Made by a program: the position numbers and the translations under genes. Positions 11,572 to 50,620 of a stretch of DNA of 64,000 nucleotides are shown in pieces. The notes under the pieces were generated by a model that was given only the letters and a program-made list of their open reading frames with translations, was not told the origin of the DNA and ran no database searches. Position 1 is the stretch's first letter; every line of letters starts with the position of its first letter. Source of the stretch: Rhodospirillales bacterium (GTDB taxonomy: Bacteria > Pseudomonadota > Alphaproteobacteria > Bin95); NCBI GenBank assembly GCA_038143065.1, contig JAYQLI010000042.1:1-64000 (forward strand), given 5' to 3'.

Positions 11572-11603
11572 CCCCAGAAAACAAACAGCAATAGGGAGAA
11601 CAA

Positions 11604-14809: not shown

Positions 14810-15589
14810 TCCAGCAGGAGCTTCCATCGTCATCATGCTGCGCAGTCTCAAACTGCATGGCATGGCGCATGCGGTCGATGATCTGGTCGCACAAGGTGCG
14901 CCCGCGTTTGAGGCCGCCACCCCCATGTTGTCTCAACTGCTCAAGGCGGAAATGGCAGAACGAGAAGTGCGATCAATTGCCTATCACACGAAGGTGGCGC
15001 GCTTCCCATCCTACAAGGACCTTGCAGGCTTTGACTTCGCATCAAGCGATATCAACGAGGCCACTGTACGGCAGCTTCATCATGGTGAGTTCATAGAGAA
15101 TGCAGAAAACGTTGTTCTGATTGGGGGCCCCGGCACCGGCAAAGCCACGTCGCCACAGCTATCGGTGTCCAAGCCATCGAACATCACAGACGCAAGGTGC
15201 GCTTTTACTCGACCGTCGAACTGGTCAACGCATTGAGCAGGAAAAGGCCCTTGGGAAGGCCGGGAAGATGGCTGAAATGCTCACAAAGATCGACTTGGTC
15301 ATTCTTGATGAACTCGGCTACCTGCCGTTCAGCCCGTCCGGTGGCGCTGCTGCTGTTCCACCTTCTCAGCAAACTCTATGAGCGCACCAGTGTCATCATC
15401 ACGACCAACCTAAGCTTCAGTGAATGGGCGCAGGTCTTCGGTGATGCAAAGATGACAACAGCTCTGCTCGACCGGCTCACGCACCGCTGCCACATCTTAG
15501 AGACCGGCAACGACAGCTATCGCTTCAAAGCCAGCTCAGAGACCGCAAAGAAAAACACAAAGGAGGCAACCACATTGACCAAAGCATAG
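14799..15589 (+). CDS. istB: IS21 helper ATPase IstB
   Basis: [34 protein letters not shown]. Confidence 0.92.
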
Positions 15590-15661
15590 CCGCCGATACA
15601 TAACTAAGAGCGGGTCAAATCTCGGTGACAATACCGGGTCAGTTCTCAATGACATTCAACA

Positions 15662-16219
15662 CTTTGATCAGTTTAGTGGTGCCCACGGCATACGGATAGT
15701 TGTGACAACGACACGTAGCGGAGCTGCCACAATCACTCTTTGCGCAGTGATCAATTCTCCTGAATCCAGACGTATGTTTATGCACTCTTGTCCTTCTTCA
15801 CAAAGCTCAGAAACTACAGCACCCGTGCGTATGTTGCTCGAGCCAAGCCGCTCAGCAAGAGTATCTATCAAAGTCGTTGATCCACCAACGATACGAACCA
15901 TTCCATCTTGTCCAGGCAGCGGTTGATAGAACGGTTCTGGCCCATAGCCTGTGATTACTGCGTTACCTTCGTTAAATTGATCAAACGTCTTGATATCAAG
16001 CTTACTCAGCCAACGAGCCACAACGGGTTGATATTTTGGCCAGACCCAAGTTGGGCCTAGATCAGCAACGGCTTGAGTGCTGGCACCATCACGTACTGAG
16101 CGGATGCGACCTCCTATTTGTGCATCTGCTTCCAGCACCTGCACGCTGATGCCCGCTTCTTGCAATGTTACGGCTGCGGTAAGTCCGGAAAGGCCAGCAC
16201 CAATAATAACTACATCCAT
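15662..16219 (-). pseudogene. Flavin monoamine oxidase family, truncated by IS21
   Basis: VVIIGAGLSGL..EA..GGR..DLGPTWVW; only about 185 aa before the IS end. Confidence 0.75.
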
Positions 16220-20312: not shown

Positions 20313-21125
20313 GGTGCTGTCAGACGAATGAGAACTCGCATCGGATTGCTGGCGACGCTTTAATCTATGCGCAGCACAAAGGCGCCACTCAGTAAGAGCG
20401 GCGGTTCGCGTTTGAGTTTTGAAATTGTTTCATGAGTAGAGGTGGCGCTCTGATTGAAATGGTTGTGGACTGAAGAGTGGATTGAGGCGAACTTTTGCAG
20501 ACATCGAGTCTGTCGGAAGCGGAGCATGGCGCGTTCTCGTCGCCGAAACGGGTGAGAATTCTCCGCCCTATTATTCACACCAGCGGCGTTTTTTGCCGAT
20601 CCGCGTTGCCAATGTTTTCGACATTGCAGCGCCATAGGAACGTAGTTTGTCCGTCACAAACATTTTTGGTACGCCATAGCGCTTCATTGCATTTTTTTGA
20701 GGAATTTCAATGCGCTTTGCGATCTCGGCGCTTTGTTCTATAACTTTTAAGCACCTCACCTTCGTGATCAACGGCTCGCCAGAGATAATACGTCATCCGT
20801 TGATTTTCACGAAAACCTCATCCAGGTGCCACTGCCAGTTCGAATATGCATCGACTAACTCGGTTTCTTCGTATTTCAGCAGCAAACATCGGACCAAATC
20901 TGTTCCACCAAAACCGAACTGTTTCATGGCTGATCTTGATGCCACGTTCGTGCAAAAGATCTTCAACGTTACGAATTGAGAGCGGAAACCGAACATAAAG
21001 CATCACCGCCAGGCGGATGATCTCAGGCTCGTTTTAAAAAAGTACCTGAATGGAGAGTGTTTTGTCATTTGCGGATGCTACAAATACACCCTGCACGGCT
21101 CAATTTGGTTTTGTTTGACAATACC
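20313..21125 (-). mobile_element. IS6-family element, near full length
   Basis: IRs GGTGCTGTCAGAC / TTTGACAATACC; transposase LYVRFPLSIRNVEDLL, WHLDEVFVKING, TDKLRSY, NNRAENSH. Confidence 0.9.
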
Positions 21126-21134
21126 GGGAAAATT

Positions 21135-23988: not shown

Positions 23989-26900
23989 ATGGACCAAATA
24001 TTTAGATGTTTAATCCTCGTGGTTTCGCTGATGCTTCCTTCATTATTGCATTCTGAAAGCTTTGGTCGACACGTTTCAATTGAAAATATTGAAGTAAATT
24101 CTTCGACCACGATACCTGCTGGCTCAACTGTAAATTTCTTGGGCACCATTAATGTCTCACAGTCAGTTTTCCCCAAGCGGTAAGCTGGCAACATTTACTT
24201 TCGAAGACCGCATTTTTAATGCCGATGCAGCACTTTTCTATCAACCAACAAAAACTCATCCTTTACGACATCCGCCCGAGGCTTAGATGCGGGAACCACG
24301 CTTCCATATGCACAACCATGACTACTCAAAGTAATGGAAATAGCCTGACCTTCGCCAACGGAAATTATCAAAGGTATTGTTGAAGTCAAAGCAAATAATA
24401 ACATCGTTGATGGCTATACAGTTACACAACCAGAAGACATTTTTTCCTGGCAAGACAGTCAGAGTGAATTTTGCATCAATGGTTTAGACCACTCGACATT
24501 GTACCAAATCACGTTGCTGTCAGGTCTCGAAGCTAAGCGACAATCATACTCGGTTACTTTGGATCAGCCTATTTCCTTTCAAGTGAAAACGCCAAGCATG
24601 AGCCCCAAACCAACCGTTGATGGCTCTAAAACCATTCTTACCAATGCCGAGAATGCCGTTATCCCTTTAGAATACGTTAATGTTAATGAAATCGAAATAT
24701 CGTTGCACAGAGTGGATCTGGCTTCACTGACTTCGTACAGTTCCATTTTCAATGTTTTGGACAGTTACGATGTTAGTAGGCTCAGCAATTACTGGGGAGA
24801 CGTTCTCACTAAAAAGACTATAAAACTTGATAGTACACTCGACAAAAAACAAAGCATCAATCTAAACTTTTCTAATCTGATAAGCGCCAATGAGCGAGGT
24901 GTATTTGTTGCAACATTCACATCACCAGACATTGAAATTCGTTCCTACCAAAATCAACCAACACAATGGTTCTCGATTTCAGATATCTCGGTGCAAGTAT
25001 TTAGTGGACTCAATAAGACTGACATCCTTCTTAAAAGTTTTGAAAATACCAATCCGATTGATGGCGCCACCGTTGAAATTATTGCTGGTAATAACCGAGA
25101 ACTCTTCAAAGGAACGTCTGACTAATGGTGGTAGATTAAGCGTATCCAACAATTTGCTCGCTGGATCAGGCGGATTTAAACCTGAATTTCTTGTCGTCAG
25201 TTCTGACAAATTCGGGACCAGTATCTTGCAAGTGCCCGATCTTAAGCAAAAGCCTAGGTTCCTTCGTGGTGGCGAAATAAAACAAAATCTCGAAGACGTT
25301 TATGTAACAACCGACCGTGAAATTTATCGATCTGGCGAAACGGTTTCCGTTTTCGGTGTAGTTCGGGAGTTAGACCTCGATGTTATTGGAAGTGATGAAC
25401 TTTATATTCACTTGGTAGATCGCAACGGCAATCAAATTAAAAAAGGCAAACCTGGAATTAGATAATTATGGGGCTTTTGAAACAGATCTCGAACTTGGTC
25501 AAAGCTTCAGGCTTGGACAGTATACTATCCAAATTAGAAGTGTAGATGACTTTATTCTTGCCAACCATGTTATCAGACTTGAAGATTTTGTTCCCTTAAC
25601 TATCGAGCCTAAATTACAAACCAACAATGAAATTTGGTCACTGAACAGTACTCAAAAAATTCAATTATCTGGGGATTACTACTCTGGGAGTGCTACGGGA
25701 GGGATGAAGGCACAAATCTCGACCTATGTTAAAACGACCGACAACATAGGCGTGCCAGAATTAGAAGATTTTGTGTTTGGCAATGTCGGTAGTTCAACCA
25801 CAGCGGCGTTAAACGAATTTCAGTCTGAGCTAGACATGGAAGGCCAAATGGCTGCAACACTTCTAACCGACTTTGATACAGATCCGTCCTCGTCTATACG
25901 AAGTCTCAATTGATGGCACCGTTTTTGACGTTGGCGGTAGAGCAAACACGGCTCGGCTAAATATCCCACTTGATACAATAAGCAGCTACGTCGGCATCAG
26001 AAAAGACTTTGAAACGTACATTGATGAGGCTCTACCCCATCGTTTACGATTGCAAACGTAACTCGAGCAGGTCAACCTCTCGACTTTGATAACGTGTCTT
26101 ATAGCGTCCGCAAAATTTATTATGACTACAATTGGTACTACAACAGCGGTTGGCGCTGGAACAGGGTGCGAGTAGATACTGAGGTCATAGAGGCCGGTAT
26201 CGTTTCTGGCAAACAACTGACTGTAAAGAACTCCTCAATTGGGGACGTTAAGAAATTACCGTATCCAACGAAGCCGGGTTCAAAACAGTAAGTGAATTCT
26301 TTTCTGGTTGGGGAGCCGATGCTAAACCAGCCTCGGAGCCGGAAGAACTCTCTCTGTCTTACACAAACGGGATCTTAAGAGGTAATGCAGGATATTCTGG
26401 AACTTTGTCTGTGTTGGTCGCTGATCAAGATATTGTCTCTCTGGAAACCGTGTCCGTGGTCAAAGGTGACTTCGAGGTGGAGATACCCCTACCCAAATAT
26501 AACTGAGCCCGGGGCACACCTCTTTAGCTTCTTTGGTGCGTCCTATAGAAAAGGTTCTGAACATTTACCGCAAATCTCCATAGGCAAAACTTGGGTCTCA
26601 AACGGGTCTGAGCGCAATATGAGCCTGAAAATTAATTCTCTAGTCGATGTTAATAGCGCTACGCCGATAACAGTTGCCTTGGACACAAAATCAAAATCTG
26701 GGACAGCTAAAATATTTGTAATTGATGAAGGCATCCACGCTTTAACCGGTTACCAAAACAAAAACTTGAAAGACCACTTTTTGAGTGAGCGAGCGTTAAA
26801 TTTTGGGATATTCACAAATTTTGGGCAACTCATCTCACAAAATTCAGATCTTTCTACGCTCCGAGTTGGCGGTGATGGAGATATGTTATCCGCCGCTGCC

Positions 26901-29000
26901 GCTGCTGATAAATCTGAATTCTTCAAGACAGTAACATACGCAAGTCCCCTGCTCGATATCCAAAACGGACAAGCAGAATTTACCTTCCCGCCAACAATTG
27001 AATGGGAGGGTAAGCTAAGGGTTGTGGCTTTTAGCATCGATGATAGAGGCTTTGGATCCAGAAGAATTTATGACAGTTCAAGATCCAGTCAGTATCGATG
27101 TATCGATGCCTAGATTTGTAACTCCAATTGATAATGTTGTGGCAAAAAACTCAATGTCAGATGGAATGAATTCAAAGGTCCAATTGAGTTTAACAACACG
27201 GGTTTTAGATATAGAAACAACCTCTATAATTTCGCAACCCGAGACCAACTCATACAAACTGGAGCTTCCTATTTCAGCGAAAGGCTTAGGCAGAGTTCAA
27301 TCAGTGTCGCAGTAATGGCGGGCGGTCAGGAATACACCAGAAACTACAGTATCGTTTCTCGTTCAAGTTCGTACCCAGTTACCGAGATATCATCCACAAA
27401 ATTAGAGAAGAAAAATTGGCTTGGCCTTGGCAGTGTGCAAGTGCAACCATATCAGTCTTCATTGATAGATTTGGATGAACCTGGAAATGAGTACTCTGTT
27501 AGTCTGACCTCATCGCTAGGCATGAACCTCCAACAAGTCGTAGTTGACCTTGATCGCTACCCATATGGGTGCGTTGAGCAAGTATCTTCGAAAACAAGAG
27601 GCCTGATAGCCTTATCTCAGGTTCGCGGCATTACTGAAGAAACGACCAAAAAAAATCCAAATTGGCATTGATAACTTAATTGCAAAAGCAAAAAATTATC
27701 TGGCGCTTTTGGCTATTGGGGATCGCAATTCAGCCGTGTACGAAAGATTTCAACCGTATGCTGTCGATACACTCAAAAACGTTGCCTTTTGCGAATGATA
27801 AGGAAAAGGTAAGGACCGCGATTAAAAACGGTTTGGAATATCTATACCGAACAAGCTTCGGGACGCCGAGACTAAATTGTACAGTTATGGTCTGCTCGCG
27901 AAAGCAGGTTACGAAGTTACTTCGAGAGCGAGGTATTCAATCGATCAAGAACTAAAAATGATGTTTTCCAGTATGTGATGCCACCCAAAGACGCGGCAAC
28001 GTATATTGATGATTTAGTGCTATCTTACTGGGTTGCTGCTAATTTGAATGACACAAAAAGAATGCTTCAAATTTCTTGATAGTGCTCGATTTTCACTAGG
28101 ACAAATCACTTCGCAAGAGCCCAGCACTGCAACTAATTTCAGGAGCATGGATTTCGACAACGAAACCGCAGGTTTCGATTTATGGGTAAATCTTCGCTGC
28201 GCTATGCCCATTTATTGACGGACTTGTCAGCCGACCAATTGGCTCCTGTGTTCGAAACCATTATTGAAAATACGCATGAATATTTGGTTCAGCGACAGTA
28301 CAGATCGACGCACACAAATGCTAAACTAGTCACTTTGCAAAAGCATAAGGAGCGCTCACTTTCGGGCACCGTAGTCAGTTTAGATGGCGTTAAATACGAG
28401 TTAGATGAAACTGGTTCACTGCCAATTAGTTTGAAACAACTCGCTGACGGTTTTAAAATTTCTCACAATGCGTCTTCGGCACTTTATTTGAATGTAAAGT
28501 CGACAGGGAAACGGCGGGAATAAAAGCGCAGGATAATGGCTATCAGGTTCAAAAATGGTGGTATGATAGAAATGGTGATTACGTTGATCTCACATCAGGC
28601 GTTCTACCGGCCAAACAGGGCGATTTGTATACGGTTGTCATTTCGATTGATCGAACAAAAAGTGGTCATGGATCAGATCTTTTACTAACAGATCTTCTGC
28701 CAGCCGGATTTGAAATTGAAAAAGCTGTTTTAGCAGATCCAAAAAGTAGATGGGGTATTGTCAGCAACACTTGATTTCGAACAGGGCAAAAAAGCTTTTT
28801 ATACCGCCGAAATGGATGATCGTTTCATTGCTCATTTTCAGTCTCGTTGGTATGGAGGTTCCTTTGCCTACATTCGCTACACTGTACGAGCCGCGTATGA
28901 AACGAATGCAATTATTCCAGATGCAGTTGTCGAAGAGATGTATGCACCAGAGGTCAATGGTCGATCTGAAATTACAGAAAGCATTGTTTCCTCTAGATGA
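23989..29000 (+). CDS. Bacterial alpha-2-macroglobulin (YfhM-like)
   Basis: YVTTDREIYRSGETV (MG2), EDFVP, IDEGIHALT, thioester RYPYGCVEQ, DLLPAGFEIE, EEMYAP; followed by pbpC. Confidence 0.9.
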
Positions 29001-33240: not shown

Positions 33241-33901
33241 CGCTTTTGGCGAACTAAAATGCAGAGATGATGCTGAAATTATGCAAAATTGAAGGTAAAA
33301 TGTGCAGTAAATGATGGGTTGGACATTTTTTATGCAGCAAAAATTTGCCCAGTTTCAAGCACAGCATTAATATCTTTGTAAATTAGCCAAAAGTATCATA
33401 TCAATACTTACAAGGCGGGCTAAAACACCGTCGAAACGAGCAGCAATCGACCCTAAGGCTTTCTTTTTCTCCCGGGAAGCCTTTGTTTTTGATAATAAGC
33501 TTGTTGGCGGTTTTCATAAAAAATAAAAAGAACATCAGTACAAAACTATTTGTGGCGAAAATTGATTTTCAATCAACGTAACAATGTTCGGAATAAATAC
33601 ATCATATTATTAATTGCGTTTATCCAGATTTTACTTTCGTCAGTGGTCGTAAAACAGGTAAATGCCTAACGCCGATGCAAAAGCGATAATTTCTATGGCC
33701 GTAAATACCTGAAATATAATCATCTGTTTATCCTTCCAAAAAAATTTCTTTGGTTTGAATATCCAGTAGAGTTGCAGCTAATATATCTCTTGTTTGCAAA
33801 TTAAATGATAGTTTGTGCAGTTTTGGTGCAGTTTGCCTGAAAGGCTTTGTGCTTATTTTAGGGCTATGCCAGTCTTCACGAAACTAAGATGGGTGATCAC
33901 A

Positions 33902-34588
33902 ATGGCGACAATAATTATCGTAGATGACGAAGAAGAGATACTAGACCCGCTTGAAGAAATGCTCAGCTCTGAGGGTTATAACGTCAAAGCGTTTTCATCG
34001 AGCGTTAAAGCAGAAGCCCATCTTCTTGAACATAAGGCTGACTTAGCAATCTTCGACATAAAGATGCCAGAGCTAGACGGCTTTCTCTTCTGAAATCAGT
34101 CCGATTAAATTCACCTAATTTACCCATCATTTTCTTATCATCAAAAGCTGACGAGCAAGATCAGATCATTGGCTTCACTTTAGGTGCAGACGATTATGTC
34201 ACCAAACCGTTCAGCAAACACCTATTACTTATGCGAGTTTCAGCTGTTCTGAGGCGACACCAAAATGAAAACGTTTCGAACGAAGCTGATTTGGTAACCA
34301 CCGGACCCCTTATAATTGATCAAGATCGCCACCTAGTAACCTGGAATGGGGAAGCCGTTGGTCTTACCGTAACGGAATGTTTGCTTTTGCTATCTTTATC
34401 ACAACGTCCAGGATCAGTGAAAAGTCGTAACCAGCTAATGGACGCGGCCTATCGTGAGGCTATCTATGTAAGCGATCGTACAATAGATAGTCACATTCGC
34501 AACATTCGCCAAAAAACTCAAAGTAGTCGATCCAAAATGTGACATCATTACGACTGTCCATGGCTTGGGCTACAAATTGAACACCTAA
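33902..34588 (+). CDS. OmpR-family response regulator (ChvI-like)
   Basis: IIIVDDE, FDIKMPELDG, GADDYVTKPF, VKSRNQLMDAAY..DRTIDSHI. Confidence 0.85.
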
Positions 34589-37950: not shown

Positions 37951-38462
37951 CGAAATGTTGATTATTACCAGGGGGACATTACTGTCTCACTTCTACTGTC
38001 CTAAATTATGGTCTGTCATTTTCATTTATATTCATATTATCAAACAAAAAGCCTTTTGTTTGGCTTTAAAACAAATCCTAAGAAGGGATCCAGGAATGTC
38101 TAAATCTACAGATAAACAAATCTCAATAATGATAAACAGATGGGTTTTTGACCCATTCAAGAAATTGACTTAAAGAACTTAGAAAGGAGTCAGTTCAAGA
38201 ATGAATCTAAAAGAACTGGTATGACATTAATCAAATGAAACTACCTTTTGGTATCGTGCGTTGTACTCCTCACCGACTGCTTAAAAAGTGGTTAGGTATG
38301 AATCTCCTGTCAGTAATGAATGTGGGTTTGAATGCCATTCAGCATCAAAAATCTTTAGATTTTTTCTTTAACAGTTGTTTCCACATCTCACACATCGATG
38401 AAAAAGACTAAATATAGTTGATTACGGATTTTTCACTGCGGGTGAAAAATCTGAACATCTAA

Positions 38463-39661
38463 TTACATCGGAGGAATTGATAGATGATAAATTTCTCGTT
38501 TCTCTAATAAGGTTTCAGGAACAGGCGGTCGCATACCAAGCGCGTGGTGTGGCCTGATGTGATTGTATTCTTTAGGCCAGATGTTGATCGCCACCTGGGC
38601 CTGTTTGACGCTGTGGAACCACTCGGTATTTAGGAGCTCTTGACGCAAGATACCGTTGAAGCGTTCGTTATAGCCATTCTCCCAAGGGCTACCTGGATAG
38701 ATTTGGATCGGCCTTGCGCCGACCTTTCTTAGCCAATCCTGAAGGTGCTGAGCAACGAACTCCCCGCCATTATCAGAACGGATAAATTCGGGTTTCCCGT
38801 GTTTCATCAGCAGGCGGCGCATCACTTCCAAAACATCGTCGGAACCCATCTTGTCTCGCACCTCAACGCAAAGCGCCTGGCGGGTATATTCATCCAGGAC
38901 AGTCAGCATCTTGTAGCTGCGCCCGTTACTCAGCCTGTCATGTACAAAATCCATGGCCCAAACGTGGTTTGGATGTGTCGGGCGTAAACGAATGACCGAG
39001 CTATCTTTGTGATAAAGCCGCCGTCGCTTTTTGTGCCGCTCAGGCAGTTTTAGCCCCTCTTCGCGCCATAAGCGCTCGACTTTCTTGTGATTGACGTTCC
39101 AGCCCTCGATCCGCAACAGTTCAGTGACTTTACGATACCCGTATCGTCCATACCGCTTGGCATAGTGGATCATGGCGAGACGCAAGGCATCATCATCTTG
39201 AACCTTGGTTTTATAATGCAGGCTGGAGCGCGACACTCCAAGCACCGCACAGGTGCGCCGTTCTGATGTATCCAGTTTCTGACGGGTGTGGATCACGGCC
39301 TGACGCACCCCATCAACTGTCAGGCCTTCGGCTTTAAATAATCGAGGCTCTCCTTCAAGATCAGCTTGTCGAGCTGAAGGTCCGCAACGATTTTCTTAAG
39401 CCTCTCATTTTCCTTCTTCAATGCTCTCATCTGTGAAAGTTGAGGCCGGCCAAGGCCACCAAACTTCTTACGCCAGTAATAATACGTCTTGTCCGAAATC
39501 CCCGCTTTGCGACATGCGCTCACGACGTCCAAACCATCGTGCAAATGAACATCAATCTCGCGCAATATCTTCAGTGCGTCCTCATCCGAATACCGTTTCC
39601 GTGCCATTCTTTGCAACTCCATTGGTCAACAAATACTGGCACAGTTTTAGGGGCCAAGACA
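38463..39661 (-). mobile_element. IS3-family element (orfA 39320-39607, orfB 38463-39308)
   Basis: IRL TGTCTTGGCCCCTAAAACTGTGCCA; DDE motifs WAMDF, SDNGGEF, NERFN; right IR not seen. Confidence 0.9.
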
Positions 39662-39828
39662 TTGAATCAGAGATAGTCTTGAAAACTCCAAAGAATTTTT
39701 CAATGGAATTCTCAATTCTTCAGTAAATCACAGACTGATTGGGACAGTAGTGGATCGTTCTACTGTCCTAAATTTATCTCCCTAAAATATTAAATTGTAA
39801 ATACGAAATCAAACAGAAGGACTAAAAA

Positions 39829-40136: not shown

Positions 40137-40270
40137 ATGAAGACAGTTTTGTTGAGTGGGTATCCGAGTTGGTGGACGACTGTTTTATTCAAACCTTACG
40201 AACGAGCAAGAATTCCGAAAAGCGCTAAGCTAAATTTCTCACATTCAACAGTCCAGTCAGATGAGATTTA

Positions 40271-40852
40271 CTACCTCATTTTGGCTCTCACTATCACTTT
40301 CAATATATCGCTGTAGTTTGAAGCGATGAATGGCCAACCATCATCTGAATCCTCTAATGACCCACCCACAACAGAGATCTTCTTTGATGTTTCCGTTATG
40401 AAAGTTCTTCGACCACTGTGCGATGAGCATCCAATCAAACCTAATCTGTCATACCAACGTTGAAACATATTAACGATTGCTTGTGGAGCTAGTGCTCTTT
40501 TGAGCGTTCGGTTCGAATGATTGATGATGTTGACGGATTAAAAATTTTGGAGTTTGATGCTCTTTTCCAACAATTTAATTAAGTTAAGCTTCAGGTCTTT
40601 GTTCAGTGGAACCACCTGCCCCATTCCCTTTGGATGATGATTAGGAAGGTTTAGATAATCACCAACTGATCCGTCAGAATTCATCACCATTGCCCATTTG
40701 AGGTGAGCTATCTCTTTAGCTCGCAATCCAGCTTTAACGGAAAAGTAGAAGATTGTTTGATCTCTGAGACCATATCGGTTGGTTAGAAGGTACTCGCTTA
40801 TCATTTTGACCTGAACACGGCTTAGTGTCTTTGCTTGTTTCCCAAGACCCAT
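40271..40852 (-). CDS. Small (~195 aa) catalytic-domain-only tyrosine recombinase
   Basis: GLRAKE (R), SHSGRR (HxxR), VGHSSLQT..RY (H/Y); GAGGA RBS. Confidence 0.85.
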
Positions 40853-40966
40853 ATTTGATCCTCAACTGATTATGTTTGATTGATAATCAGACAATCCAGC
40901 ATCAGTTAATTTGAGACAACGTTAGGATAGATAAATAAGTTAAATGATATATCAATAGGTTAAATG

Positions 40967-41001
40967 AACTGATGATAGAAAATGTAATTCTATAATCAGT
41001 C
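40967..41001 (+). other. Palindromic site S1 (loxP-like)
   Basis: AACTGATGATAGAAAATGTAATTCTATAATCAGTC. Confidence 0.65.
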
Positions 41002-41769
41002 TTGCTTCGAAAAGTCGTTTGTTCACGGCTTCGATTATATCAACACCGAATTCATCTGCATGCTGGCGTATCACTTGTTCGTAAGAAATGTCTAAACTGT
41101 CAAATTCTTCTAGATGTTTAAAACCCAACGTTTCTGGTTTCCGAACTAAATTTTCTAAAAATGTTTTAACAGTTAGCTCTTCAACCGCACGTCTCGTGTA
41201 TCTAGCGTAGGTCTTTTCTTATTCTTTACAGTTAGAAATTGTTTAAATGCCACTTGTTTCCAAAATGAATATTCGATGGCGTTTCCGCATTCATCGAACG
41301 ACAAAATAGTTCTCTTTCTTTTCGTCAATTCGACCACCAGTTCTTCGGATATTTTTATGCCACTTCCTATATGCATCAATTTGTTTAAGTTCTTTAAAGT
41401 TACGTATCTGTTTAATTGGATCAACTTCGACCATAATTAATGCCTCAAGCTAGCTTTCACCTTAAAGATGACTGAGGCTCCTCAGACAGCAAGTAGGCTC
41501 ATGCTGAAAGTTCTGCACTCCTCGTAATCCGCCTGATATGTGCTCTATCTTTATAGAATGGCATTATTCCGGAGCAGTTCAGCTTAATTTATGGAATGTC
41601 GGATATCTTAAATTAGTTTATTGAAAAATTTTGCATCGGTAAATTAGATATTGGTTTAAACAGCTGTTTTTAAAATAGCCTACCGGTACCTGATCTAGTT
41701 TTTTTCTGACCAGACACAAGCTAATTGGTTATAAGTTCGCTCATCAGCTGGTGAATGGTTCAGGTATAA

Positions 41770-42765
41770 TCTGAACAGATGCTAAAAATTAAACCGTTTT
41801 CCAAAATACTCGTTTTGAAACTTAGCCCATTCTTGATAAATCAGGCTGCTTGGTACTGGATCCATATCTAACGAAAGGAACTGGCTCATTCCCACTATAC
41901 TTACAATAGATTGGCTGGTTTGATTTTTTACATTTTACAATACAAATGGTCTTATCAACAATCTCAAGAAAATGTATCTACTAAGCTGGCTGCTGTTGTG
42001 CCACAATTCATTAATTTGGTTCATGATCAAAAGTGAGTATTTATCTCTGTCTTTAAAATCATCACTTTTAATTCCCACGATCTCTTTATCTTGATCTCTT
42101 ACACCAATAATGAGATCGCCTGAATTTGTATTCAAAAACCCACATACTTCTTTAATTGCCGCCCGCCTTAATTCCTTTGAAATTTGTCCTGTTCACACAT
42201 CCCGAGAAAACGATTGCTTAAATTCTGTGGTCTCGGATTCTTCCGAGGTCTAGGTAATGCTTTATTTCAAGAGGCCGACAAAGCTTTCGGTACGCATTAG
42301 TCGCTCTACCCTGCGTACCATCATTGAAAGGATTTAATTTTCATCATTTTTTATTTTTAGCCGTTCTATTGTTCAGCATTAATTGCAAACGTAATGGAAC
42401 GAGTTAATTTATGTCCGATTAGCTGTTGGAACGTTATAGCTCCTTCAATAGAACCAGAAAGTTCAGCTAGATGTTTAGAGTCTTGCAATTCACCAGAAAC
42501 ATTAAAATGATATTCATGCTCAAGATCACGCCCAGGCTGACCATCTCGATCAATTGAGAAACTTAAACTCTGCTCCGATAGTTTCCTTCAAAACTGACTG
42601 CAAATTAGGGCTCAAATATACAACCCTGCTTTCGCCTTCTTCTGCTCTTCAAATTCAATGAAAGCTTCTAAATGATCACAGAGCAAAACCCAAGGGACGC
42701 TGTCCACAAAACGGGCATAATGGAAGGACATCATTAAATGGGGCTAAATTTACAACATTACTCAT
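41770..42765 (-). CDS. AlbA_2/Schlafen-domain protein with N-terminal CPFCG motif
   Basis: ESETTEFKQSF..KEVCGFLNTNSGDLIIGVRD..IVGI. Confidence 0.7.
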
Positions 42766-42802
42766 CGATAGCATCCAATTTAAGCCTGTTCCCAATTTTG
42801 CG

Positions 42803-43106
42803 CTAAAAGACCCTATATCTCAATAATAAATCATCTTCAAAACAACTAAATGACAAAATGAGGTGCATTGATGACATTATAGGGGAACTATAATCGATTG
42901 ACCACGACATTCGCTTTTTGTCCAACTGTTTAAGATCTTGATTTAGTTCCGCGCACTTTCTAAGTTTTTTGTGTGAGCCACAGATACAAGCTTTATCAAG
43001 GAAACTTTGAGGCATCGCACCACCAGCATCTTTTTCGTATTATTTTTCTTAAAATGTTTAGATTGTTGGCAGTGTGATTATTAAGTTCTTCATTTTTCGC
43101 AACCAT
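42803..43106 (-). CDS. Small protein with SEC-C-like motif
   Basis: CICGSHKKLRKC. Confidence 0.35.
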
Positions 43107-43677
43107 TAATAAAATCGCTTTTCTAATAATATCCTCATGTTTTTTATATATCAAAGAATACGGTTCTAAATTTGAGTAGGGACGGCCCCAGGACCAAATT
43201 TAACGATCCCATCCAACTCAAGAAAGAATTCCAATTCATATCGGTCGATTCCTGCAATTTTTTTGATCTCAAATTGAGTATTGTTCAGGAATGGAAAAGA
43301 ATTTGGATGAATGAATTCGCTTAATAAATCATAAAATTCTTCAGACCTTCTACATTGCGCTCAAGTTTCTTTTAATTTGGTCAAAATATTTGAGTTAGAC
43401 AACATACCGTCTCTATCACGTACTGCCTGACCACCAGCTAATTTTCCGTGGATCTAAGCTTGATGGCAGTACCATGGGCATCTTTGGATCATAAAAAGAA
43501 TTTAATGTTCCTAATCCAAACCATATCCTCCAAGTTAGAGGATTCTTCACACATTTCGTCTCATATTCCGTTAAAGTGCTTAATTTTTTCAGAACCATCA
43601 TTGAATGCCGCTACGGTCTCTAACAGATTGAGTATGAAAATATAAAGATTTATGTTCCAAATTTTCAAATGAACTCA

Positions 43678-43905
43678 TTATTTGAACAAAGGGGCATCCT
43701 TTACATCTAAGCACATCGTATAATTGAACGCTTCGATTATACGAATACATGAAAAAATAGGACCTTGTGGTTCGATATATATGTAATTTCTTTTGCTCAA
43801 TAGAGAGGCAGACTTTGGTGGCTCTGTGTACGCCTTAGGTAAGTGGAGATTACTAGGCTTTAACCTACACAGTCGCTCTAATCTTTTTACCTCTAGTTCA
43901 AACAT
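43678..43905 (-). CDS. Hypothetical protein
   Basis: ORF only; no recognisable motif. Confidence 0.3.
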   Translation of the reverse strand: MFELEVKRLERLCRLKPSNLHLPKAYTEPPKSASLLSKRNYIYIEPQGPIFSCIRIIEAFNYTMCLDVKDAPLFK

Positions 43906-43956
43906 TTCATCAAACCCAAAACCTCTTAATTGGACAAAACTTACTGTATCAAGGCC

Positions 43957-43990
43957 AACTGACCATAGAAATTATATTCTATAATCAGTC
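43957..43990 (+). other. Palindromic site S2 (loxP-like)
   Basis: AACTGACCATAGAAATTATATTCTATAATCAGTC, 3 bp beyond the hsdR stop. Confidence 0.65.
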
Positions 43991-43993
43991 ATA

Positions 43994-46900
43994 TTATGCG
44001 GCCATTCAAACTCAGATACCACTTCCTGCCTGCCTTAAGACCATCTCAACTGCATCTTAGCCTTATCAGGGGGATATTGATATCTTCTCAGAAGGGTTCT
44101 GATCAAGACACGCAGTTTAGCCCGCACACTATCACGTACAGCCCAATCCACAGTAAGATTATCTCGTAGCTTGGCAGCTATCTCTCTGGCCATCTCGACA
44201 AGGACTTCTTCCCCATGACTTCTTGGGCAGACTCATTTTTGGCTAGAGCATCATAGAATGCTTCTTCCTCATCATTCATATTGTGACTTTCACGCCTACA
44301 AGATCCTCTTGAAATTGTTTAGCCATAGCGATGAGTTCCTCAATAACCTGCGCAGCCTCAATAGCCCTGTTGGCATACTTGCCTAGAGATGCCTGAAGCA
44401 AGTCACTGAATTTTCGTTGCTTAACCACGTTGGTTCTAAACTTAGACTTAACCTCGTCTTTTATAAGCCTCTGCAACAGTTCAACAGCGAGGTTCTTATG
44501 GGGCATCTTCATGACCTCAGATAAAAACTCATCAGACAAGATAGAGATATCAGGGTTTCAAGGCCCCAAGCTTGAAAATATCTGATACGCCTTCACCTAC
44601 TACGGCTTGAGAAACAAGTTGGCGTAACTCATAGTTCACATCCTTTTTAGGTCTATCCTCCATCGCTTCCTTTAATCAGCGGCGCTCTAACTGCCTGATG
44701 GAATGCAACTTCTGGCGATAACTCTAGTGCTTCATCCAATGTACCACACAGAGCAAAGGCCTTTGGTCATTTTGCAGCACAGTATCTGCATACCGGCGTT
44801 TACCGTCATCCTGCGCTAGTACACAGTCCATGCATTCAGGTATCAGTGTAAGGGCTTTTGTTTTGAATTCGCTCCAATCAACCGTGTGGAGAAAGTCTCC
44901 GGCAATCTGGATCTTTTCTTTAAGGATGCGCAGGGCTTCACTAGAGTCGATAGTGGGGCGTCCTTTACCCTTGGCGGCGCTATAGGTTGCGAGTGCTTCT
45001 TTTAGCTGCGGTGCAATGCCGATGTAATCTACAGACCAAGCCCCAGGTTTATTTTTAAACACTCGGTTAACACGAGCAATTGCCTGTGCCAGGTTGGCCC
45101 CCTGCATCGGTTTGTCGATATACATTGTTGACAGGCAAGGAGCATCAAATCCGGTCAGCCCATATCTCTGACAATTACTATTTTAAGCGCATCATCAGGA
45201 TCTTTTACCCGCTTTTCCAAATCCTTCTTCTGCGACTTATTAGTATGGTGCGGCTGGAATAGGCCTTATCTGAAGCAGAGGCTGTCATTACTACTTTGAC
45301 TGTACCGCCCATGTGATCATCTGAATGCCAATCAGGTCGAAGTTTAATAATTTGATCGTAGAGACGCACACAAATGTCACGGGACATTGCCACAACCATA
45401 GCTTTACCAGGCTGCGTTTGGCTTCTGGTTTCGTAGTGCTGGATTAGATCTTCGGCTATCTCCTGCAAGCGAGCCTCAGTGCCAACTATCGCCTCTAATG
45501 CCGACCATTGCGACTTAGCTTTCTCTTTATCACGATCATCCTCCACCTCATCATCGAGCAGTTCTTCTACTTCTGCATCGATTTGGCAAAGCGTCTTGTT
45601 TTGAGGTTGATCTTGGCTAATCGGGACTCGTAGTAGATCGGCACTGTGGCCCCATCATCCACCGCTGCTGAATGTCATAGATCGACACATAATTACCGAA
45701 TACAGATTGGGTATCTCGGTCATCTTGCGATATCGGAGTGCCGGTAAAGGCTAGGAACGTAGCATTCGGTAAAGCATCTCTTAGCGATTTAGCTAGTCCA
45801 TATTTAATTGTTCCAGTTTGACCGTCGATCTTAGCTTTTAAAGCCATACTGCGTGCGATGTGCCTCATCTGCAATAACCACGACATTGTGGCGATCGATA
45901 GCACTGGGAACCTATCTTCATCTGCATCAAGTCCGAACTTTTGTATGGTTGTGAAGATTATGCCACCAGACGGCCGGTTCATCAGATGCTCTCGGAGTTC
46001 CGCCCTCGAGTTAGCCTGCTTTGGTGTTTCACCCAACAGTTCGCCAGCGCCAGCAAATACGCCGAACAGTTGCCCATCAAGATCTGACGATCTGTAACCA
46101 TTACCAATGTGGGGGTTTTCTAGGCGAGGCTCTGCTATCAAGCGTCCTGCAAGGCATGCCATTTCAATGCTCTTGCCCGCTCCCTGCGTGTGCCAGACAA
46201 CGCCACCTTTTTGGAGCCCTCTATGCCAGATGCTGTAACAACGCTCTCCACAGCAGCCTGTACGGCGTGGAACTGATGATAGCCTGCGATCTTTTTGATA
46301 ACCGTCTTATCGTCCTCAAACAGGCAGAAATACCGCAGATAGCTAAGGAACACCTCCTTGTTAAAGAGGCCCTTGATAAGGGTTTCCAGTTCACGGTGTT
46401 GTCCTAATGGATCCACTTCAACGCCGTCGATGGTTCGCCAGCGCATAAAGCGTTCTTCATTAGCGGAGAGTGATCTAATCGGGCAAATATACCGTCAGAT
46501 ATCACCATGCAGGTGTTGTAGTTAAACAGGTCTGGAATGTCGTTCTTGTAGGTCTGTAGTTAGTTATAGGCCGCCCAAATATCAGCTTGTTCGTCTGCGG
46601 CATTCTTCAGTTCCAGAACTGATAGAGGCAAGCCATTTACAAAGACTAAGACGTCAGGCCTACGGTTATGCTTCTGACCATGTATTGTGAACTGGTTGAC
46701 CACCAGCCATTCGTTATTGTCAGGATTGTCGAAATCGATGACTTTTAGCTGCTTACCAATCTCCTGATCACCCTCGTGATAGGTCACCTTAACGCCTTTG
46801 GTCAGCCACGAATGAACCTGTCGGTTGGCAGACATCAGGGCTGGAATGTTGGGTTAGTAAGCTGAGAAAGTGCTGTGGTAATCGCTGTTTGAGGAATATC

Positions 46901-47081
46901 AGGATTGATGCGAGTAAGAGCGGATAGCAGCCGATCTTTCAGTACAACCGATACATAATCAGACCGTTCAGGTGTTTCACCATCAGGGTGCGATATCGTA
47001 GCCACAGATATAATCGTAACCAAGGTCTTTGAACCATTCGATACTTTGCAGTTCAACTTGGTCTTCGGTTACCAAAGCCAT
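43994..47081 (-). CDS. hsdR: Type I restriction enzyme R subunit
   Basis: [57 protein letters not shown]. Confidence 0.92.
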
Positions 47082-48330
47082 CAGATACCAGCCTCTTCAA
47101 GGAACTTCTCTGCATCAGGTATGCGGAGTTCACTGAGATGAGTTTGGAAGCAGTGTGTCTCTGAGTTTGGATAATACTTCAATTTCTGCCGCTGCAGTTA
47201 ATATGCAAGTCTATGATAGGATTTATAATCTCTGTCCAAATTTCTGTTTTAGGTCAGAAGCAGGCATTACGACTTTTATGCTTTTAATACTGCTCGCTGA
47301 AACATTCCCTTGAGCGGAACCAGTGCCAAAGGTTTTCAACTTCTTTTTTAAAACTTGCCCGTCTTCATACAACTTCACCATGAATGCGTAATCGCTCGTT
47401 GCGTGGGCAACAAGCCTACCGACCCGCTGGTTGAGGTAAGGCAACTCAACAACCTTTGGGAACCAATAGCCCTACTTCTCCAAGATCCGGTCAACCAATA
47501 AGCGTCCCCAGATGATAAACGAAACCTTTGAATTTCAGAAATCGTCATGACTATCTACTTGACTGGACGAAAAACATCTACCAACATAGGTTTGACATTC
47601 CCTATCCTAACAACAGGACTCCTTCTTCGCACCAGTCTTTGCTCTTGAAAGCATAGCCATTCTGAATATCGGCAAGTTTGAAGGTAGATAAAGTCCACCC
47701 ATTCGGTATCTCCCCAATCTCCGAGATCACCAACTCATCAGGGAACAGATCACTGATTTCGGCGGAAGACCTGTGGGCGACCCTCTGCCTTTGCTCGTAC
47801 AGGATCAAAGTCCACAAACCATGACTTAAAAGATCGTCTTGGCGATCTCTCTCAAGGGTTTGGTTCATCTTTTGGTTGAGTTCGATTTTATCGTCTAGCG
47901 TGCCGAGGATGTGGGCGATTGCTTTTGGTCAGCAAAACTTCGTTCGGGTACTTCAAGAGATTTAAGACTTGTTTGATTGATCAGGGGTGCCGGAACCACC
48001 TCTCAACGAATGCAAATCCTTCGTCAACAATAAGTAGTAACAATAGCGAGCATCAGCACCAGTCTTTGCATTGCCTTTGATTGCATCTAACCCAACACTG
48101 CTCTGAACTGTAATGCACATCGAACACAGTAAGACCCAACACGACCTATTATTATAGTTTCAGCAGGATTACTGAATTCATCGCAGTGACCAATAACTCC
48201 GTTGGAACCAAACACATTGAACGTTCCATGCCTTCATCAGCAGGGCGTTTTTCCGTTTTCAAAGATAAGGTAAGTATCTATAGAATAATTGCACTAAAGA
48301 TCCTCAAACGTACAAGATAGATTTGAAACA
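47081..48330 (-). CDS. hsdS: Type I R-M specificity subunit
   Basis: [51 protein letters not shown]; start approximate. Confidence 0.85.
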
Positions 48331-49825
48331 ATTTTTTGGTCTAATTCAGAAGACGCATCCTGCAAGAATGCAGTGACTTCTGTTAAATTTTTTATCGTTT
48401 TCGTAAACGTTTCTGGATGTTTCGTTTGTTCCCCACATACCTTCCCGGCGTCAGGACAAAACCATTCTTCTCGATCTCTTCAAGACGCTGACTTGCAATC
48501 CCCGCAACGTCCTCGTAACCTTCACCGGTTTTCCACGACTGAACCGTCTGATGGATCTTTGCGATGTCCTTGTTTGTGAACACTCTAAGAACCCGGCTCT
48601 GCATAGTTCCCAACTGTCGAGCATCGATAAACAACGTTCTCACCTCGACGATCCTGCCCATGATCTTGTCGTTTGTGAAAAACCAAAGACAGACTGGAAT
48701 CTGTGTATTGAGAAACAACTGACCGGTAATGCGACCATAACCTCGACCACGTCACCTCGCACCATCGCATTGCCTCTGTATCTGTCTTCACCGCCAGTGT
48801 TGGAACTCATCGAACCATTAGCCAGTACAACCCCTGCCTGACCGGGACAACTTCCACAACATGTGTTGTAGCCAAGCATAGTTGGTATTGCCTACAGGGG
48901 CCTACCAAACTTCCAGCGGGTCACTCTCGTACTCTCCTCCCCAGTCTGAAATGTTGAACGAGTGGATTAGCCATGATGTAATCAAACTTCAGATCTGGGA
49001 ATTGATCTCGTCCAAAGGTATCACCAGGCTCTTTCCGAGATCAGCAGCAAACCACGAAATGCCAAGTTTCATTGCTGCTAATCGCCATGTAGTGGGATTA
49101 CTTTCCTGCCCATAGGATGGAGACATCATCCACACGACCGCCATGTGCCTTTACGAATTCTTCACTCTGAACAAACATGCCTCCTGAACCACAGCAGGGA
49201 CTTGGTAGACACGGCCTGAGTTAGGAGAAAGGACAGCAACAAGGGTCTTCACGACATGAGTTGGCGTGTAGAACTGACTGCCTTCTTGCCTTCTGCAGAA
49301 GCAAATTGGCCAATGAAGTATTCGTTACTTCGCCCAGAAGATCGGAGGATCCGTATTTATCAGCAAACCCAATTGTAGAGATGAGATCGATGAGTTCACC
49401 TAGAACACCCTGACCAAGCTGCGCACGACCGAACCGTTTGTCTAACTTACCTCGCAAAGAGGTGTTCTCGTTCTCAATAGCGGTCATAGCTGCATCAACA
49501 AGCGAGCCAATGTCTGGTTGCTTAGCTTTTGCCCTTAACGCCTCCCAGCGAGCTTCCAGGAACCCAGAATACGTTGTCTTGAACATAATAGTCTCGTTCT
49601 TCTAGTTCCTCCTGGTACTCGGAAGGGTCCTCACTGATGAACAATTCAGAGGCTGGATTTGAAACAGATTGTCTTATCTTTTCCTGCTGCTTAACAAAAG
49701 TATCAGATATATATTTGAGGAATATGAGGCCTAGACGATATGCTTGTATTCGGCAGCATCCATCTTTGAGCCTGGTGCTTGTCAGCAGTTTTCCATAGGG
49801 TTTGTTTGAAATCTTGTTGGGACAT
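48320..49825 (-). CDS. hsdM: Type I R-M methyltransferase
   Basis: LWKTADK, LGLIFLKYISD, CCGSGGMF, GQESNPTTWRLA, VLANGSMSS, LTPGRYVG. Confidence 0.9.
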
Positions 49826-49839
49826 AAAATTGCCGCTCC

Positions 49840-49873
49840 GACTGATTATAGTTTTTACAAACATTAGTCAGTT
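49840..49873 (-). other. Palindromic site S3 (inverted relative to S1/S2)
   Basis: GACTGATTATAGTTTTTACAAACATTAGTCAGTT, abutting the hsdM RBS. Confidence 0.65.
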
Positions 49874-50117
49874 CCGACACATTTGCAATCACGCAACATC
49901 TCAAAAATTAGGCATCCCAGCACAGTTCACTTCATCGACTTCCAACCTCTTAAGCAAAACAGTATCTGAAGAACCCACACCAAATTCTCAAGCCGTTAAT
50001 GTATGATATAAGCTTATTCTGGTTGAGCGACCACAGTAATAATTAAAGGATCCCAGTGTGCTGTGATCCAATCTGCAGCAGTATTAAAACTGATTTGGGT
50101 GGCTAAGGAGACTATGC

Positions 50118-50620
50118 TCAGCGAAGCTCAAAGCAGGTAGAATTAACCCAATCAATCGAGGACGCCAAATCGTTCTTTGTCCTCTTCTTTAAACAATATT
50201 CCAGCCAACCAACTATTCTTTGAAGATTGTCTGGTATTTCAAAATGCAATTCGCTGTAACCAAACTTTGTTTTCTGCCAACATGATTTAACCATATGCAT
50301 AAAGTTCAGTTCAATATCGTCAGGCTTTTCCATGATGATATGCAAATGATGTCGGTGCGTATGATCACATTCTCTAACGACAAACATAGATGCTTGGCAT
50401 CCTATCGATAGCAGCAACATCGTTTGTCCAACAGAGATTTCAGAGCTAAATGTCTTTACTGCTTGGAAGCTGGCTTGCTCCATTTTTGAATGAAGCCCCG
50501 ATCAACAGCGGCACGTACGCCAAACAATTGTTATGGGAAAAGCGCAGTGAGTTTGAAATCAGGAAAAAGCGACCAAGCACGTGCTACGATATGGGCAGAT
50601 AATGGTGGTGCCATTTCGAA
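50118..50620 (-). CDS. Small HUH endonuclease-like (Rep/relaxase-type) protein
   Basis: RHHLHII (HUH) and LEYCLK (YxxK); start uncertain. Confidence 0.55.

Follow-up and report, generated by a model that had tools for sequence, protein, structure and literature searches.

We analyzed a 64,000-nt stretch of DNA (hereafter, the window) from a Rhodospirillales bacterium, namely the first part of contig JAYQLI010000042.1 (C42) in assembly GCA_038143065.1. Between about 40 and 50 kb, the window contains a gene for a small tyrosine recombinase, a palindromic site of about 34 bp (S1) upstream of it, three more candidate sites, and a Type I restriction-modification (R-M) operon, hsdMSR. An earlier reading of this DNA from its letters alone (the sequence-only reading) had proposed that loxP-like sites cut a defence island into cassettes that the recombinase captures, excises, or inverts. 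We propose that the recombinase and S1 form a widespread Cre/lox-like module, whose default role would be resolution and whose site is probably also a junction for the exchange of cargo. The features of the region are listed below. (L and C numbers are our handles for loci and for contigs of this assembly, and ranks refer to the weight matrix described below.)

40257-40852, minus strand: gene for the small tyrosine recombinase (PF00589; family length about 199 aa, catalytic core only)
40866-40908, minus strand: proximal operator-like region, with CTGATTAT-N9-ATAATCAG (40866-40890) and a half-site AACTGATGCTGG (40897-40908)
40967-41001, plus strand: S1, the predicted cognate core site of the recombinase, with 12-nt inverted arms and a 10-11-nt centre; rank 1
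41002-42865, minus strand: cargo block A, GC about 37%, with a small gene and a Schlafen/AlbA_2 fragment
42866-42899, plus strand: S4, the fourth site, degenerate and oriented like S1 and S2; rank 4
42900-43956, minus strand: cargo block B, with short open reading frame (ORF) pieces that match no family
43957-43990, plus strand: S2, which abuts or overlaps the 3' end of hsdR; rank 2
43991-47068, minus strand: hsdR, in at least 10 frame pieces, with HSDR_N, SWI2_SNF2, T1R_D3-like, and T1RH-like_C domains
47100-48290, minus strand: probable hsdS, fragmented, with Methylase_S at 47178-47501; its place between hsdM and hsdR fits
48300-49825, minus strand: hsdM, fragmented, with HsdM_N and N6_Mtase domains; ATG at 49823-49825
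49840-49873, minus strand: S3, inverted relative to S1, S4, and S2, with one perfect arm (CTATAATCAGTC) and one degenerate arm; rank 3
49874-49945, no strand assigned: 72-bp segment between S3 and the conserved flank, as defined by alignment
49946-50545, minus strand: flank F, small genes including a weakly Rep-like ORF; it abuts the site in L064, L089, and L127

The cargo genes that had been named from the sequence are largely borne out by Pfam. The HsdM and HsdR domains of a Type I R-M operon are both found, on frameshifted fragments, and a Schlafen/AlbA_2 fragment (PF04326) lies at 41938-42192. The assignment of hsdS is less certain: the match to Methylase_S is weak (19.4 bits, versus a cut-off of 22) and contains three internal stops, and two other pieces have no Pfam match. 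The small gene in cargo A (about 41005-41440) is homologous to a 148-aa ORF that is adjacent to the site in L113 and L066. The GC content steps from about 36% to about 46% at S2.

S1, S2, and S3 read exactly as they had been quoted. Their likeness is limited to about 34 bp, and the flanks are unrelated. The 12-mer CTATAATCAGTC occurs three times in the whole 4,633,825-bp assembly, always within this 9 kb, while about 0.55 copies would be expected by chance. The sequence-only reading had suggested a weight matrix as a check. We built one from 68 distinct sites, all from other genomes, using the arms only and symmetrising them, and we scored 9,264,166 positions in the assembly. S1, S2, and S3 ranked 1, 2, and 3 (47.9, 35.7, and 13.5 bits). 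Rank 4 (11.5 bits) was a new candidate, S4, between S1 and S2.

The site geometry is 12+10+12 (or 14+6+14), not 13+8+13 as had been thought. The arm positions are 84-99% conserved, except for the outermost and the 8th positions (57-61%), and the 10-nt centre is poorly conserved. In simple recombinases of the Cre/Xer type, the two arms surround a crossover region of 6-8 bp; the centre here would be 10 nt or, in the 14+6+14 reading, 6 nt. S1 is 35 bp as assembled, and the extra base may be a single homopolymer error. The inner edge of S1 lies 114 bp from the ATG of the recombinase gene (at 40852), close to the 115 bp reported earlier. Also as reported, S3 is next to the RBS (ribosome-binding site) of hsdM: it directly adjoins GGAG and ends 14 nt before the ATG. 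S2 had been placed 3 bp past the stop codon of hsdR. That is correct in one frame; in another frame, the stop falls inside S2. Since the hsd genes are frameshifted as assembled, the position of this stop cannot be fixed.

To what extent do such sites accompany such recombinases? We examined 41 loci from species-representative genomes, including SAR116, Rhodobacteraceae, Brevundimonas, Bradyrhizobium, Sphingomonadales, Opitutae, Methylococcaceae, Chthonomonas, and others. In most of these loci, two palindromes lie in the 200 bp upstream of the recombinase gene: a distal one and another whose end is at the RBS. A scan with the consensus identified the distal site in 23 of the 41 loci, and its outer edge is 146-149 bp from the ATG in 21 of them. 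(The exceptions are L032, at 137 bp, and L048, at 117 bp.) Over the homologous loci as a whole, this edge mostly lies about 141-149 bp ahead of the gene's start. The scan gave 34 matches in total, versus 1 in shuffled sequence. In the other loci, diverged half-site palindromes are visible by eye, with the exception of a few (L033, L034, L041, and L049) that have none in this position. In five whole genomes of 4.3-8.8 Mb, the site pattern occurs 1, 1, 1, 5, and 3 times, and the reversed-pattern control does not occur. In three of these five genomes, the sole site is the one adjacent to the recombinase.

Metagenomes contributed at least 80 more loci with at least 44 good sites. Among the matches listed, 24 are adjacent to a recombinase and 20 are not, and at least 7 of those 20 are true orphans, with at least 450 bp of flanking sequence on both sides. 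Some orphan sites are perfect (0 mismatches). Orphans lie between convergent genes (L071/L138) or at the 3' ends of genes (L091); S1 and S2 in the window also lie at gene ends.

On P. salmonis plasmids and in viral relatives of the recombinase (at least 39% identity), the distal and proximal palindromes are kept, with different half-sites; three types of half-site were seen in all. In these comparisons, the half-site sequences co-vary with the protein. There is only a weak signal in the viral relatives that are most distant, where 11 of 33 loci (versus 4 of 33 shuffled) match in at least 10 of the 12 arm positions. The same palindrome at a fixed offset upstream of homologues from many phyla, together with this co-variation, indicates that the sites belong to the adjacent recombinase, and we infer that the recombinase binds and cuts them.

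The sequence-only reading had also raised the alternative that the palindromes are operators or promoters. This fits only the separate, proximal palindrome. In the window, inverted half-sites (40866-40890) lie just upstream of the recombinase's RBS (40860-40863), and a related palindrome precedes the RBS in most of the homologous loci and on the P. salmonis plasmid. Judging by this arrangement, the proximal half-sites probably autoregulate the recombinase gene. Could all of the sites be operators, bound by a repressor that retains a recombinase fold and controls neighbouring genes, hsdM among them? TATAAT is part of the arm, S3 adjoins the RBS of hsdM, and the proximal half-sites overlap the promoter/RBS region of the recombinase gene in most loci. 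But a repressor would not explain why all of the catalytic residues, including the nucleophilic tyrosine, are conserved in 44 diverse members of the family, why orphan sites lie between convergent genes or at the 3' ends of genes, or why homology breaks at the sites (see below). We consider a purely regulatory role to be very improbable.

The recombinase belongs to a very large family. Among 8,000 scored candidates, 7,964 were homologous at E ≤ 1e-3, and the best 120 homologues are 183-205 aa long and 67-79% identical to the window's protein. In an alignment of 44 sequences, the catalytic R-K-H-R-H/W pentad and the nucleophilic tyrosine are retained: R44, H145, R148, H175, and Y184 do not vary, and K75 shows at least 90% conservation. 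An AlphaFold2 (AF2) model of the family has a pLDDT of 86.2 and a pTM of 0.85. (An earlier AF2 model, from a 9-sequence alignment, had a pLDDT of 41.6 and was not used for any conclusion.) With Foldseek, the model had 75 PDB matches (E ≤ 0.001). Tn1549 Int is among them, as are Xer, Cre, lambda Int, and IntI, which are matched via their catalytic domains. The best fit in size was the isolated catalytic core of lambda Int (1ae9; TMt 0.72, root-mean-square deviation 2.6), and TM-scores normalised to full-length targets were only 0.39-0.52. Similarly, the family profile aligns solely to residues 109-283 of XerD, which is the catalytic part. The N-terminal core-binding domain of simple Cre/Xer-type recombinases, which forms a C-clamp together with the catalytic domain, is absent from these 199-aa proteins. 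As judged from the alignment and the predicted fold, then, the family consists of catalytically complete tyrosine recombinases without a core-binding domain.

These proteins do not belong to the better-known families. They score far below the NCBIfam cut-offs for XerC (TIGR02224, 57.8 bits versus 335), XerD (TIGR02225, 53.9 versus 330), and the integron integrase (TIGR02249, 17.2 versus 265), so they are neither XerC/XerD equivalogs nor IntI. Within PHROGs, the family matches "integrase" families. Apart from supplements (such as the VEIME/tycheposon gene tables), the literature that we searched describes neither the family nor its site. The catalytic-core-only recombinases of about 199 aa are apparently a very large, undescribed family. 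The window's assembly also encodes distant paralogues (32-43% identity) at C35:187462-187914, C8:10392-10951, C33:85015-85565, and C47:41471-41722; one of these four is an open 199-aa frame on the main contig.

The window's own copy of the gene is damaged as assembled. It has an in-frame TAA (40538-40540) and seven indels of 1-2 bp that are private to it, several of which adjoin homopolymers; four short-read homologues have 0, 0, 1, and 1. The segment with H175 and Y184 is out of frame, and the catalytic C-terminus is lost to the frameshift. Alignment to L064 and L127 places the true stop at 40257-40259. With the in-frame stop read through as X, PF00589 is the sole Pfam match (28.6 bits despite the damage). 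The substitutions seem often to fall in third codon positions, as viewed in the alignment and uncounted.

This damage is not confined to the recombinase. No ORF in the whole window exceeds 285 aa, no gene from the recombinase to the hsd genes is intact as assembled, and hsdM, hsdS, and hsdR are in more than 20 pieces. Translation with genetic code 4 does not bring back long frames, so we rejected an alternative genetic code. Stop-to-stop frames with 300 aa or more number 6.4 per 100 kb on C42, versus 40.2 on the 2.86-Mb main contig. More broadly, the small contigs C42, C12, C33, and C38 have 6-25 such frames per 100 kb, versus 40 on the main contig, and C42 and the main contig have no near-identical repeats in common. 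The small contigs look indel-rich or of different origin. (The contamination of this bin is given as 5.5%.)

Logan contigs from four metagenome runs of marine or seawater origin, 85-99% identical to the window, span almost all of the stretch. The pieces most similar to the window, of 351, 529, and 215 bp, have 6, 10, and 2 substitutions and 11, 11, and 3 gaps, respectively; gaps are as numerous as substitutions. All four runs show the same 1-bp indels relative to the window, at 40498, 44211, 44659, 47774, and 49942. These shared differences, and the private indels near homopolymers, argue for assembly error over decay. The evidence is strong but not final, since the contigs are from other strains; the runs contain at most 13% of the stretch's words. 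Going by these alignments, the window's frameshifts are most likely assembly errors, and the genes are probably intact in the organism. Because C42 is indel-rich, the apparent pseudogenes on this contig should not be taken at face value.

We found no near-identical DNA in plasmids or in E. coli. Among 41 relatives, 7 genomes (including G000) have weak matches, at 65-91% identity, nearly all of them within the hsd genes. Separately, C42 and C28 carry a gap-rich family of 0.4-0.8-kb repeats that are 85-93% identical, with copies at 8148-8558 and 20313-21126 of the window and at 77875-78282, 89518-90340, and 91692-92509 of C42.

Comparison with "empty" relatives shows what the window has in addition next to S1. 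L064, L089, and L127 are marine contigs whose recombinase and site are 83-87% identical to the window's, and in all three, flank F directly abuts the site. A contig from run X7 has the same join (41002 to 49946). Relative to these empty alleles, the window has 8.94 kb extra, comprising cargo A, S4, cargo B, S2, hsdR-hsdS-hsdM, S3, and 72 bp; hence, the window holds an 8.9-kb insertion. Homology to L064, L089, and L127 ends at the outer edge of S1, at 41002-41008. In L066 and L113, by contrast, the recombinase, the site, and cargo A form one continuous block with the window, at 74% identity. The module of L064 is closer to the window's (86.6%), and yet homology stops at the site. Such a mismatch between the two comparisons points to exchange there. 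So, as had been predicted, different relatives have other cargo or none at the same junction. (By tblastx, flank F matches L015 at 7157-7630, where PF23343 scores 26.6 bits versus a cut-off of 27.8.)

We also considered that the 8.9-kb block is a transposon. By eye, its ends have no terminal inverted repeats, and the only possible repeat is 4-5 nt (ACTG), so we rejected this reading.

The sequence-only reading had further suggested looking in long reads for excision circles between S1 and S2 or inversions between S2 and S3. What we found are weak joints into S2 and S4 and no firm product. One joint, 42885 to 43978 in run X2, starts in the centre of S4 and is weak. Another, 41513 to 43965 in runs X2 and X3, has a side of 25 nt and is only a hint.

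Downstream of the recombinase, the system is bounded by an element that is not part of it:

38006-39737, minus strand: IS3-family element, with an intact 281-aa transposase (38463-39308; rve, rve_3, HTH_21)

This is a private insertion: L132 and L133 share both of its flanks and lack the element there. Other copies of the element in the assembly are just 73-75% identical. L133 has a closing site downstream of the recombinase; near the corresponding position in the window (37.2 kb), we found no convincing one.

If DNA is exchanged at the sites, then homology between related loci should end there. In 83 pairs of loci that are homologous over the recombinase gene, homology begins within -6 to +3 bp of the site's outer edge in 44 pairs. 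It reaches further in two (-54 and -19), and it begins only inside the promoter or the gene in 37. Homology mostly ends at the recombinase's stop codon, which gives a conserved unit of about 735 bp. In an all-against-all comparison of loci, using high-scoring segment pairs with at least 85% identity, 27 of 112 internal breakpoints were at a site (within 25 bp) in both loci, while 0.57% of the sequence is that near to a site. Examples include L047/L129 (100% identity over 334 bp), L079/L114 (99.6%), and L020/L038 (94.7% over 3.3 kb). L117, L118, and L124 each have one flank and the site in common with L128 and differ on the other side; for L117 and L128, the DNA beyond is the recombinase in one and unrelated in the other. 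L009 and L010 have site 1, the recombinase gene, and site 2 in common and differ in the cargo between the sites. Where contigs are free of errors, the stop of the upstream ORF falls exactly at the outer arm or within it. These comparisons agree with the earlier suggestion that cargo boundaries coincide with the sites. Also, many short-read contigs (among them L061, L090, L102, L112, L114, L137, and L079) have an end within 40-200 bp of a site, which is expected if assemblies break where the population holds several arrangements.

Only one locus, L129, has an exact pair of sites: two inverted copies (3690-3721 and 7507-7538, 32/32 identical) around the recombinase and three genes without a family. 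The bracketed segment is a candidate for an invertible or transposon-like unit. L129 bears on another possible explanation for the window, in which inversion between S2 and S3 would flip hsdMSR relative to a promoter outside S3, so that restriction would be phase-variable, with logic like that of FimB/FimE. S2 and S3 are indeed inverted, and at either end the same 12-nt arm faces inward; S3 lies between the 72-bp upstream segment and the RBS of hsdM; and the family resembles FimB/FimE in its size and in having a single domain, and it can be aligned to them end to end. But the spacers of S2 and S3 are unrelated, there are no strand-changing joints among the read joints listed, and a promoter within S3 itself (TATAAT) would move with the operon. 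Nor is the similarity to FimB/FimE significant (BLASTP E = 2.4; hhalign E = 0.0069, probability 5.6%). A switch of this kind seems improbable.

The neighbours of the small recombinase are variable and are typical of integrative, replicating elements. A second tyrosine integrase of about 430 aa is present in 12 loci, and large serine recombinases are present in 5. A primase-helicase is directly upstream of the site in L014, L016, and L017. Further neighbours include an Arc/CopG-like repressor, TniA-like transposases, and glmS as a flank. (Gene clusters with the sizes of R-M subunits proved to be GlmS, the primase-helicase, and large serine recombinases.) It follows that the small recombinase is distinct from the integrase of the element.

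Plasmids carry the gene as well, in 148 records, of which 144 are from P. salmonis; some of the plasmids encode ParA/ParB. NZ_CP061195.1 (L180), a 54-kb plasmid of P. salmonis, has three copies of a block comprising HicB-HicA, the site, the recombinase, and a metallo-beta-lactamase (MBL)-fold protein, in two orientations (9666-11573, 14086-15992, and 25514-27421). A fourth recombinase, of another specificity type, is at 33541-34131, near ParA/ParB. On this plasmid, each type-1 copy is accompanied by a single distal site, and there are no orphans.

Distant relatives are also encoded by phages of Caulobacter (phiCbK-like), Brevundimonas, and Ruegeria. In the phiCbK-like Caulobacter and Brevundimonas phages, whose genomes are 205-322 kb, the relatives have the same size (33-35% identity) and are labelled integrase or putative tyrosine recombinase. 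Since phiCbK is lytic, a role as integrase is unlikely for these relatives, and resolution of concatemers or inversion is conceivable.

Could the small recombinase instead be an atypical relaxase, which nicks the palindrome as an origin of transfer (oriT) and mobilises the element? There is usually one site per element, and the module lies inside integrative elements that lack obvious transfer genes. On the other hand, a symmetric core with two arms and a 10-nt centre has the geometry of a substrate for a dimer of tyrosine recombinase; orphan or paired sites lie at cargo boundaries; and distant members of the family are in the lytic phiCbK-like Caulobacter phages. According to PMC6414798, the precedents are the recombinase-like relaxases MpsA (SGI1) and TcpM (pCW3), for which an oriT with inverted repeats near the gene was proposed. 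The oriT of SGI1 is GC-rich, unlike the AT-rich site here, and MpsA has a partner, MpsB, with no counterpart at a conserved position in our 41 loci. A relaxase is a far-fetched explanation for these data.

Window 13272-15540 encodes a TniA-like transposase (rve and Mu-transpos_C_2) and a following gene. At the DNA level, this pair is 68-77% identical to genes that follow the small recombinase, within a few kb, in L033, L039, and L049. Tn5053-type elements, which target resolution sites, provide context for this observation.

Marine integrative elements with such backbones have been described (PMC9618062 and the tycheposon preprint). The available text of these two sources, without their supplements, does not mention the small recombinase or its site.

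We propose, with a probability of roughly 60%, that S1 is the crossover site of a self-contained Cre/lox-like module, with resolution as its default role, and that it is also a junction for the exchange of cargo. The module would have three parts: the recombinase of about 199 aa, which is a catalytic core alone; the 34-bp site, with two 12-nt inverted arms around a 10-nt asymmetric centre and its inner edge about 115 bp upstream of the gene; and the proximal half-sites at the promoter/RBS, which probably autoregulate the gene. This module of about 735 bp would be carried by plasmids and by integrative, plasmid-like elements that have their own replication genes and a large integrase. By default, it would probably recombine one copy of the site with another and thereby resolve multimers or cointegrates. 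Any other DNA with a compatible site would recombine there as well, so that cargo would be swapped, added, or lost. Cargo exchange would be a consequence of resolution, and it might also be an exploited function. In the window, 8.9 kb would have been gathered at the site, split by S4, S2, and S3 into cargo A (with the Schlafen-like gene), cargo B, and hsdMSR. S4, S2, and S3 would have arisen by recombination and would remain substrates.

Several observations weigh against this proposal. The usual state is one site per recombinase, and arrays are found in a minority of loci. The central spacers of S1 (TTACATT), S4, S2 (TATAAT), and S3 are unlike one another, and classical enzymes of the Cre, Flp, or lambda type require spacer identity. 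(Across genomes, the recombinase-adjacent spacers show a loose T-K-A-C-Y-C polarity.) S3 is oriented opposite to S1, S4, and S2, unlike the sites of an integron-style array. The far junction of the insertion is 72 bp beyond S3 and has no site there, with only ACTG resembling the start of an arm; hence, simple site-by-site integration does not account for the whole 8.9 kb. Products of excision or inversion were not firmly seen, and the weak joints at S2 and S4 are from other organisms' contigs. A recombinase that lacks a core-binding domain may need a partner, and no conserved partner gene is at a fixed position in the 41 loci. Finally, in distant pairs of loci, a break at the module's outer edge could simply reflect where selection on a functional unit ends; the case for rearrangement comes from the high-identity pairs only.

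Some of these observations would fit a pure system for multimer resolution (res/lox) that does not capture cargo. S2, S3, S4, and the other orphans would then be inert relics of cointegrates or decayed copies. The single-site state does dominate, as in three of the five whole genomes and on the P. salmonis plasmid without orphans; the module is found on ParA/ParB plasmids and on elements with replication genes and a separate integrase; and the spacers differ within one array, with S3 and S4 degenerate. However, decay would not produce perfect orphans or exact inverted copies (L129). Mere resolution also does not explain why L009 and L010 differ in the cargo between the same two sites, why the ends of ORFs coincide with the outer arm or fall within it, like those of cassettes, or why breakpoints are enriched at sites even in pairs of loci that are 93-100% identical. 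We view pure resolution as a doubtful account, and we favor the module with both resolution and cargo exchange.

What remains of the proposed defence platform is that recombinase sites mark cargo boundaries. The module is general and widespread, not a defence device, and S2, S3, and S4 are putative substrates. Cargo elsewhere is mostly ORFs without a family, plus DUF6994, HD_4, YkuD, DUF6641, and insertion sequences, so it is not specific to defence, and the recombinase matches none of the families in the PADLOC models. A broader form of this idea can be put forward only tentatively: lineage-specific pairs of a 199-aa recombinase and its site might run an integron-like cassette platform, of a double-strand lox type, in marine elements and plasmids, which would capture, excise, and invert cargo up to the size of operons. 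If so, then the Type I R-M system here could be flipped or shed, and these Cre-like pairs of recombinase and site, minimal and orthogonal, would form a natural library.

If the family is active, then it would represent the smallest self-sufficient Cre/lox-type pair of recombinase and site, in thousands of genomes, and the drift in specificity between lineages could yield compact and possibly orthogonal tools for genome engineering. Our proposal would also add a third route, besides integrons and pdif modules, by which short sites make genes or operons exchangeable. The elements that carry them here are marine, integrative, and abundant, and little is understood about how their cargo turns over. 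The absence of a core-binding domain also poses a question: how does a tyrosine recombinase of this kind hold and synapse DNA?

How does this module compare to known systems? In Cre/loxP (from P1) and Flp/FRT, as here, there is one recombinase and a site of about 34 bp with two inverted arms and an asymmetric centre. As with Cre/loxP, the site is near the recombinase gene on a plasmid-like replicon, dimer resolution is a likely role, and the arrangement of sites would determine whether deletion, inversion, or integration results; also, the fold of Cre's catalytic domain is matched by the predicted fold. Chains of Cre have 313-332 residues and include the N-terminal core-binding domain, which the 199-aa family lacks. 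Also, loxP is 13+8+13 instead of 12+10+12, and the family adds the proximal half-sites at the promoter.

XerC and XerD are the closest relatives in sequence and structure (the best matches in NCBIfam, and XerD and XerA in the PDB). In pdif modules of Acinetobacter plasmids, short palindromic sites delimit exchangeable modules, some of which are flanked by inverted sites. Unlike XerC/XerD-dif, the family relies on its own single small recombinase and not on the pair of the host, the recombinase gene is physically linked to one site, and it scores just 54-58 bits where about 330 are required. The arms of its site are presumably unrelated to dif.

As in integrons, the site is upstream of the recombinase gene and points away from it, the cargo that sites delimit is mostly of unknown function, ORFs end tightly at the next site, and there are sometimes arrays of direct sites (L039 and L040). 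In the window, S1, S4, and S2 are direct, but S3 is inverted, and most loci have a single site. The sites of integrons, attC, are folded hairpins. The sites here are short double-strand palindromes, the cargo includes whole operons with their own signals, and most loci have no array.

TnpI/IRS of Tn4430 and Tn5401 has a core inverted repeat, plus half-sites that overlap the promoter ahead of the recombinase gene, and it combines resolution with autoregulation. TnpI is longer than the family's proteins and belongs, with TnpA, to a Tn3-family transposon; the family's loci have no linked transposase of that kind. FimB and FimE are also about 200 aa with only a catalytic domain, and they align end to end with the family at 23% identity over 151 columns. 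Unlike the fim system, there is no short invertible promoter element with 9-bp flanking repeats here. Relaxases of the MpsA/TcpM type differ in the two respects given above, namely the partner gene and the base composition of the site. Overall, what we describe is of a known kind, a simple tyrosine recombinase with a lox-like site; what appears to be new is the single-domain family and its site.

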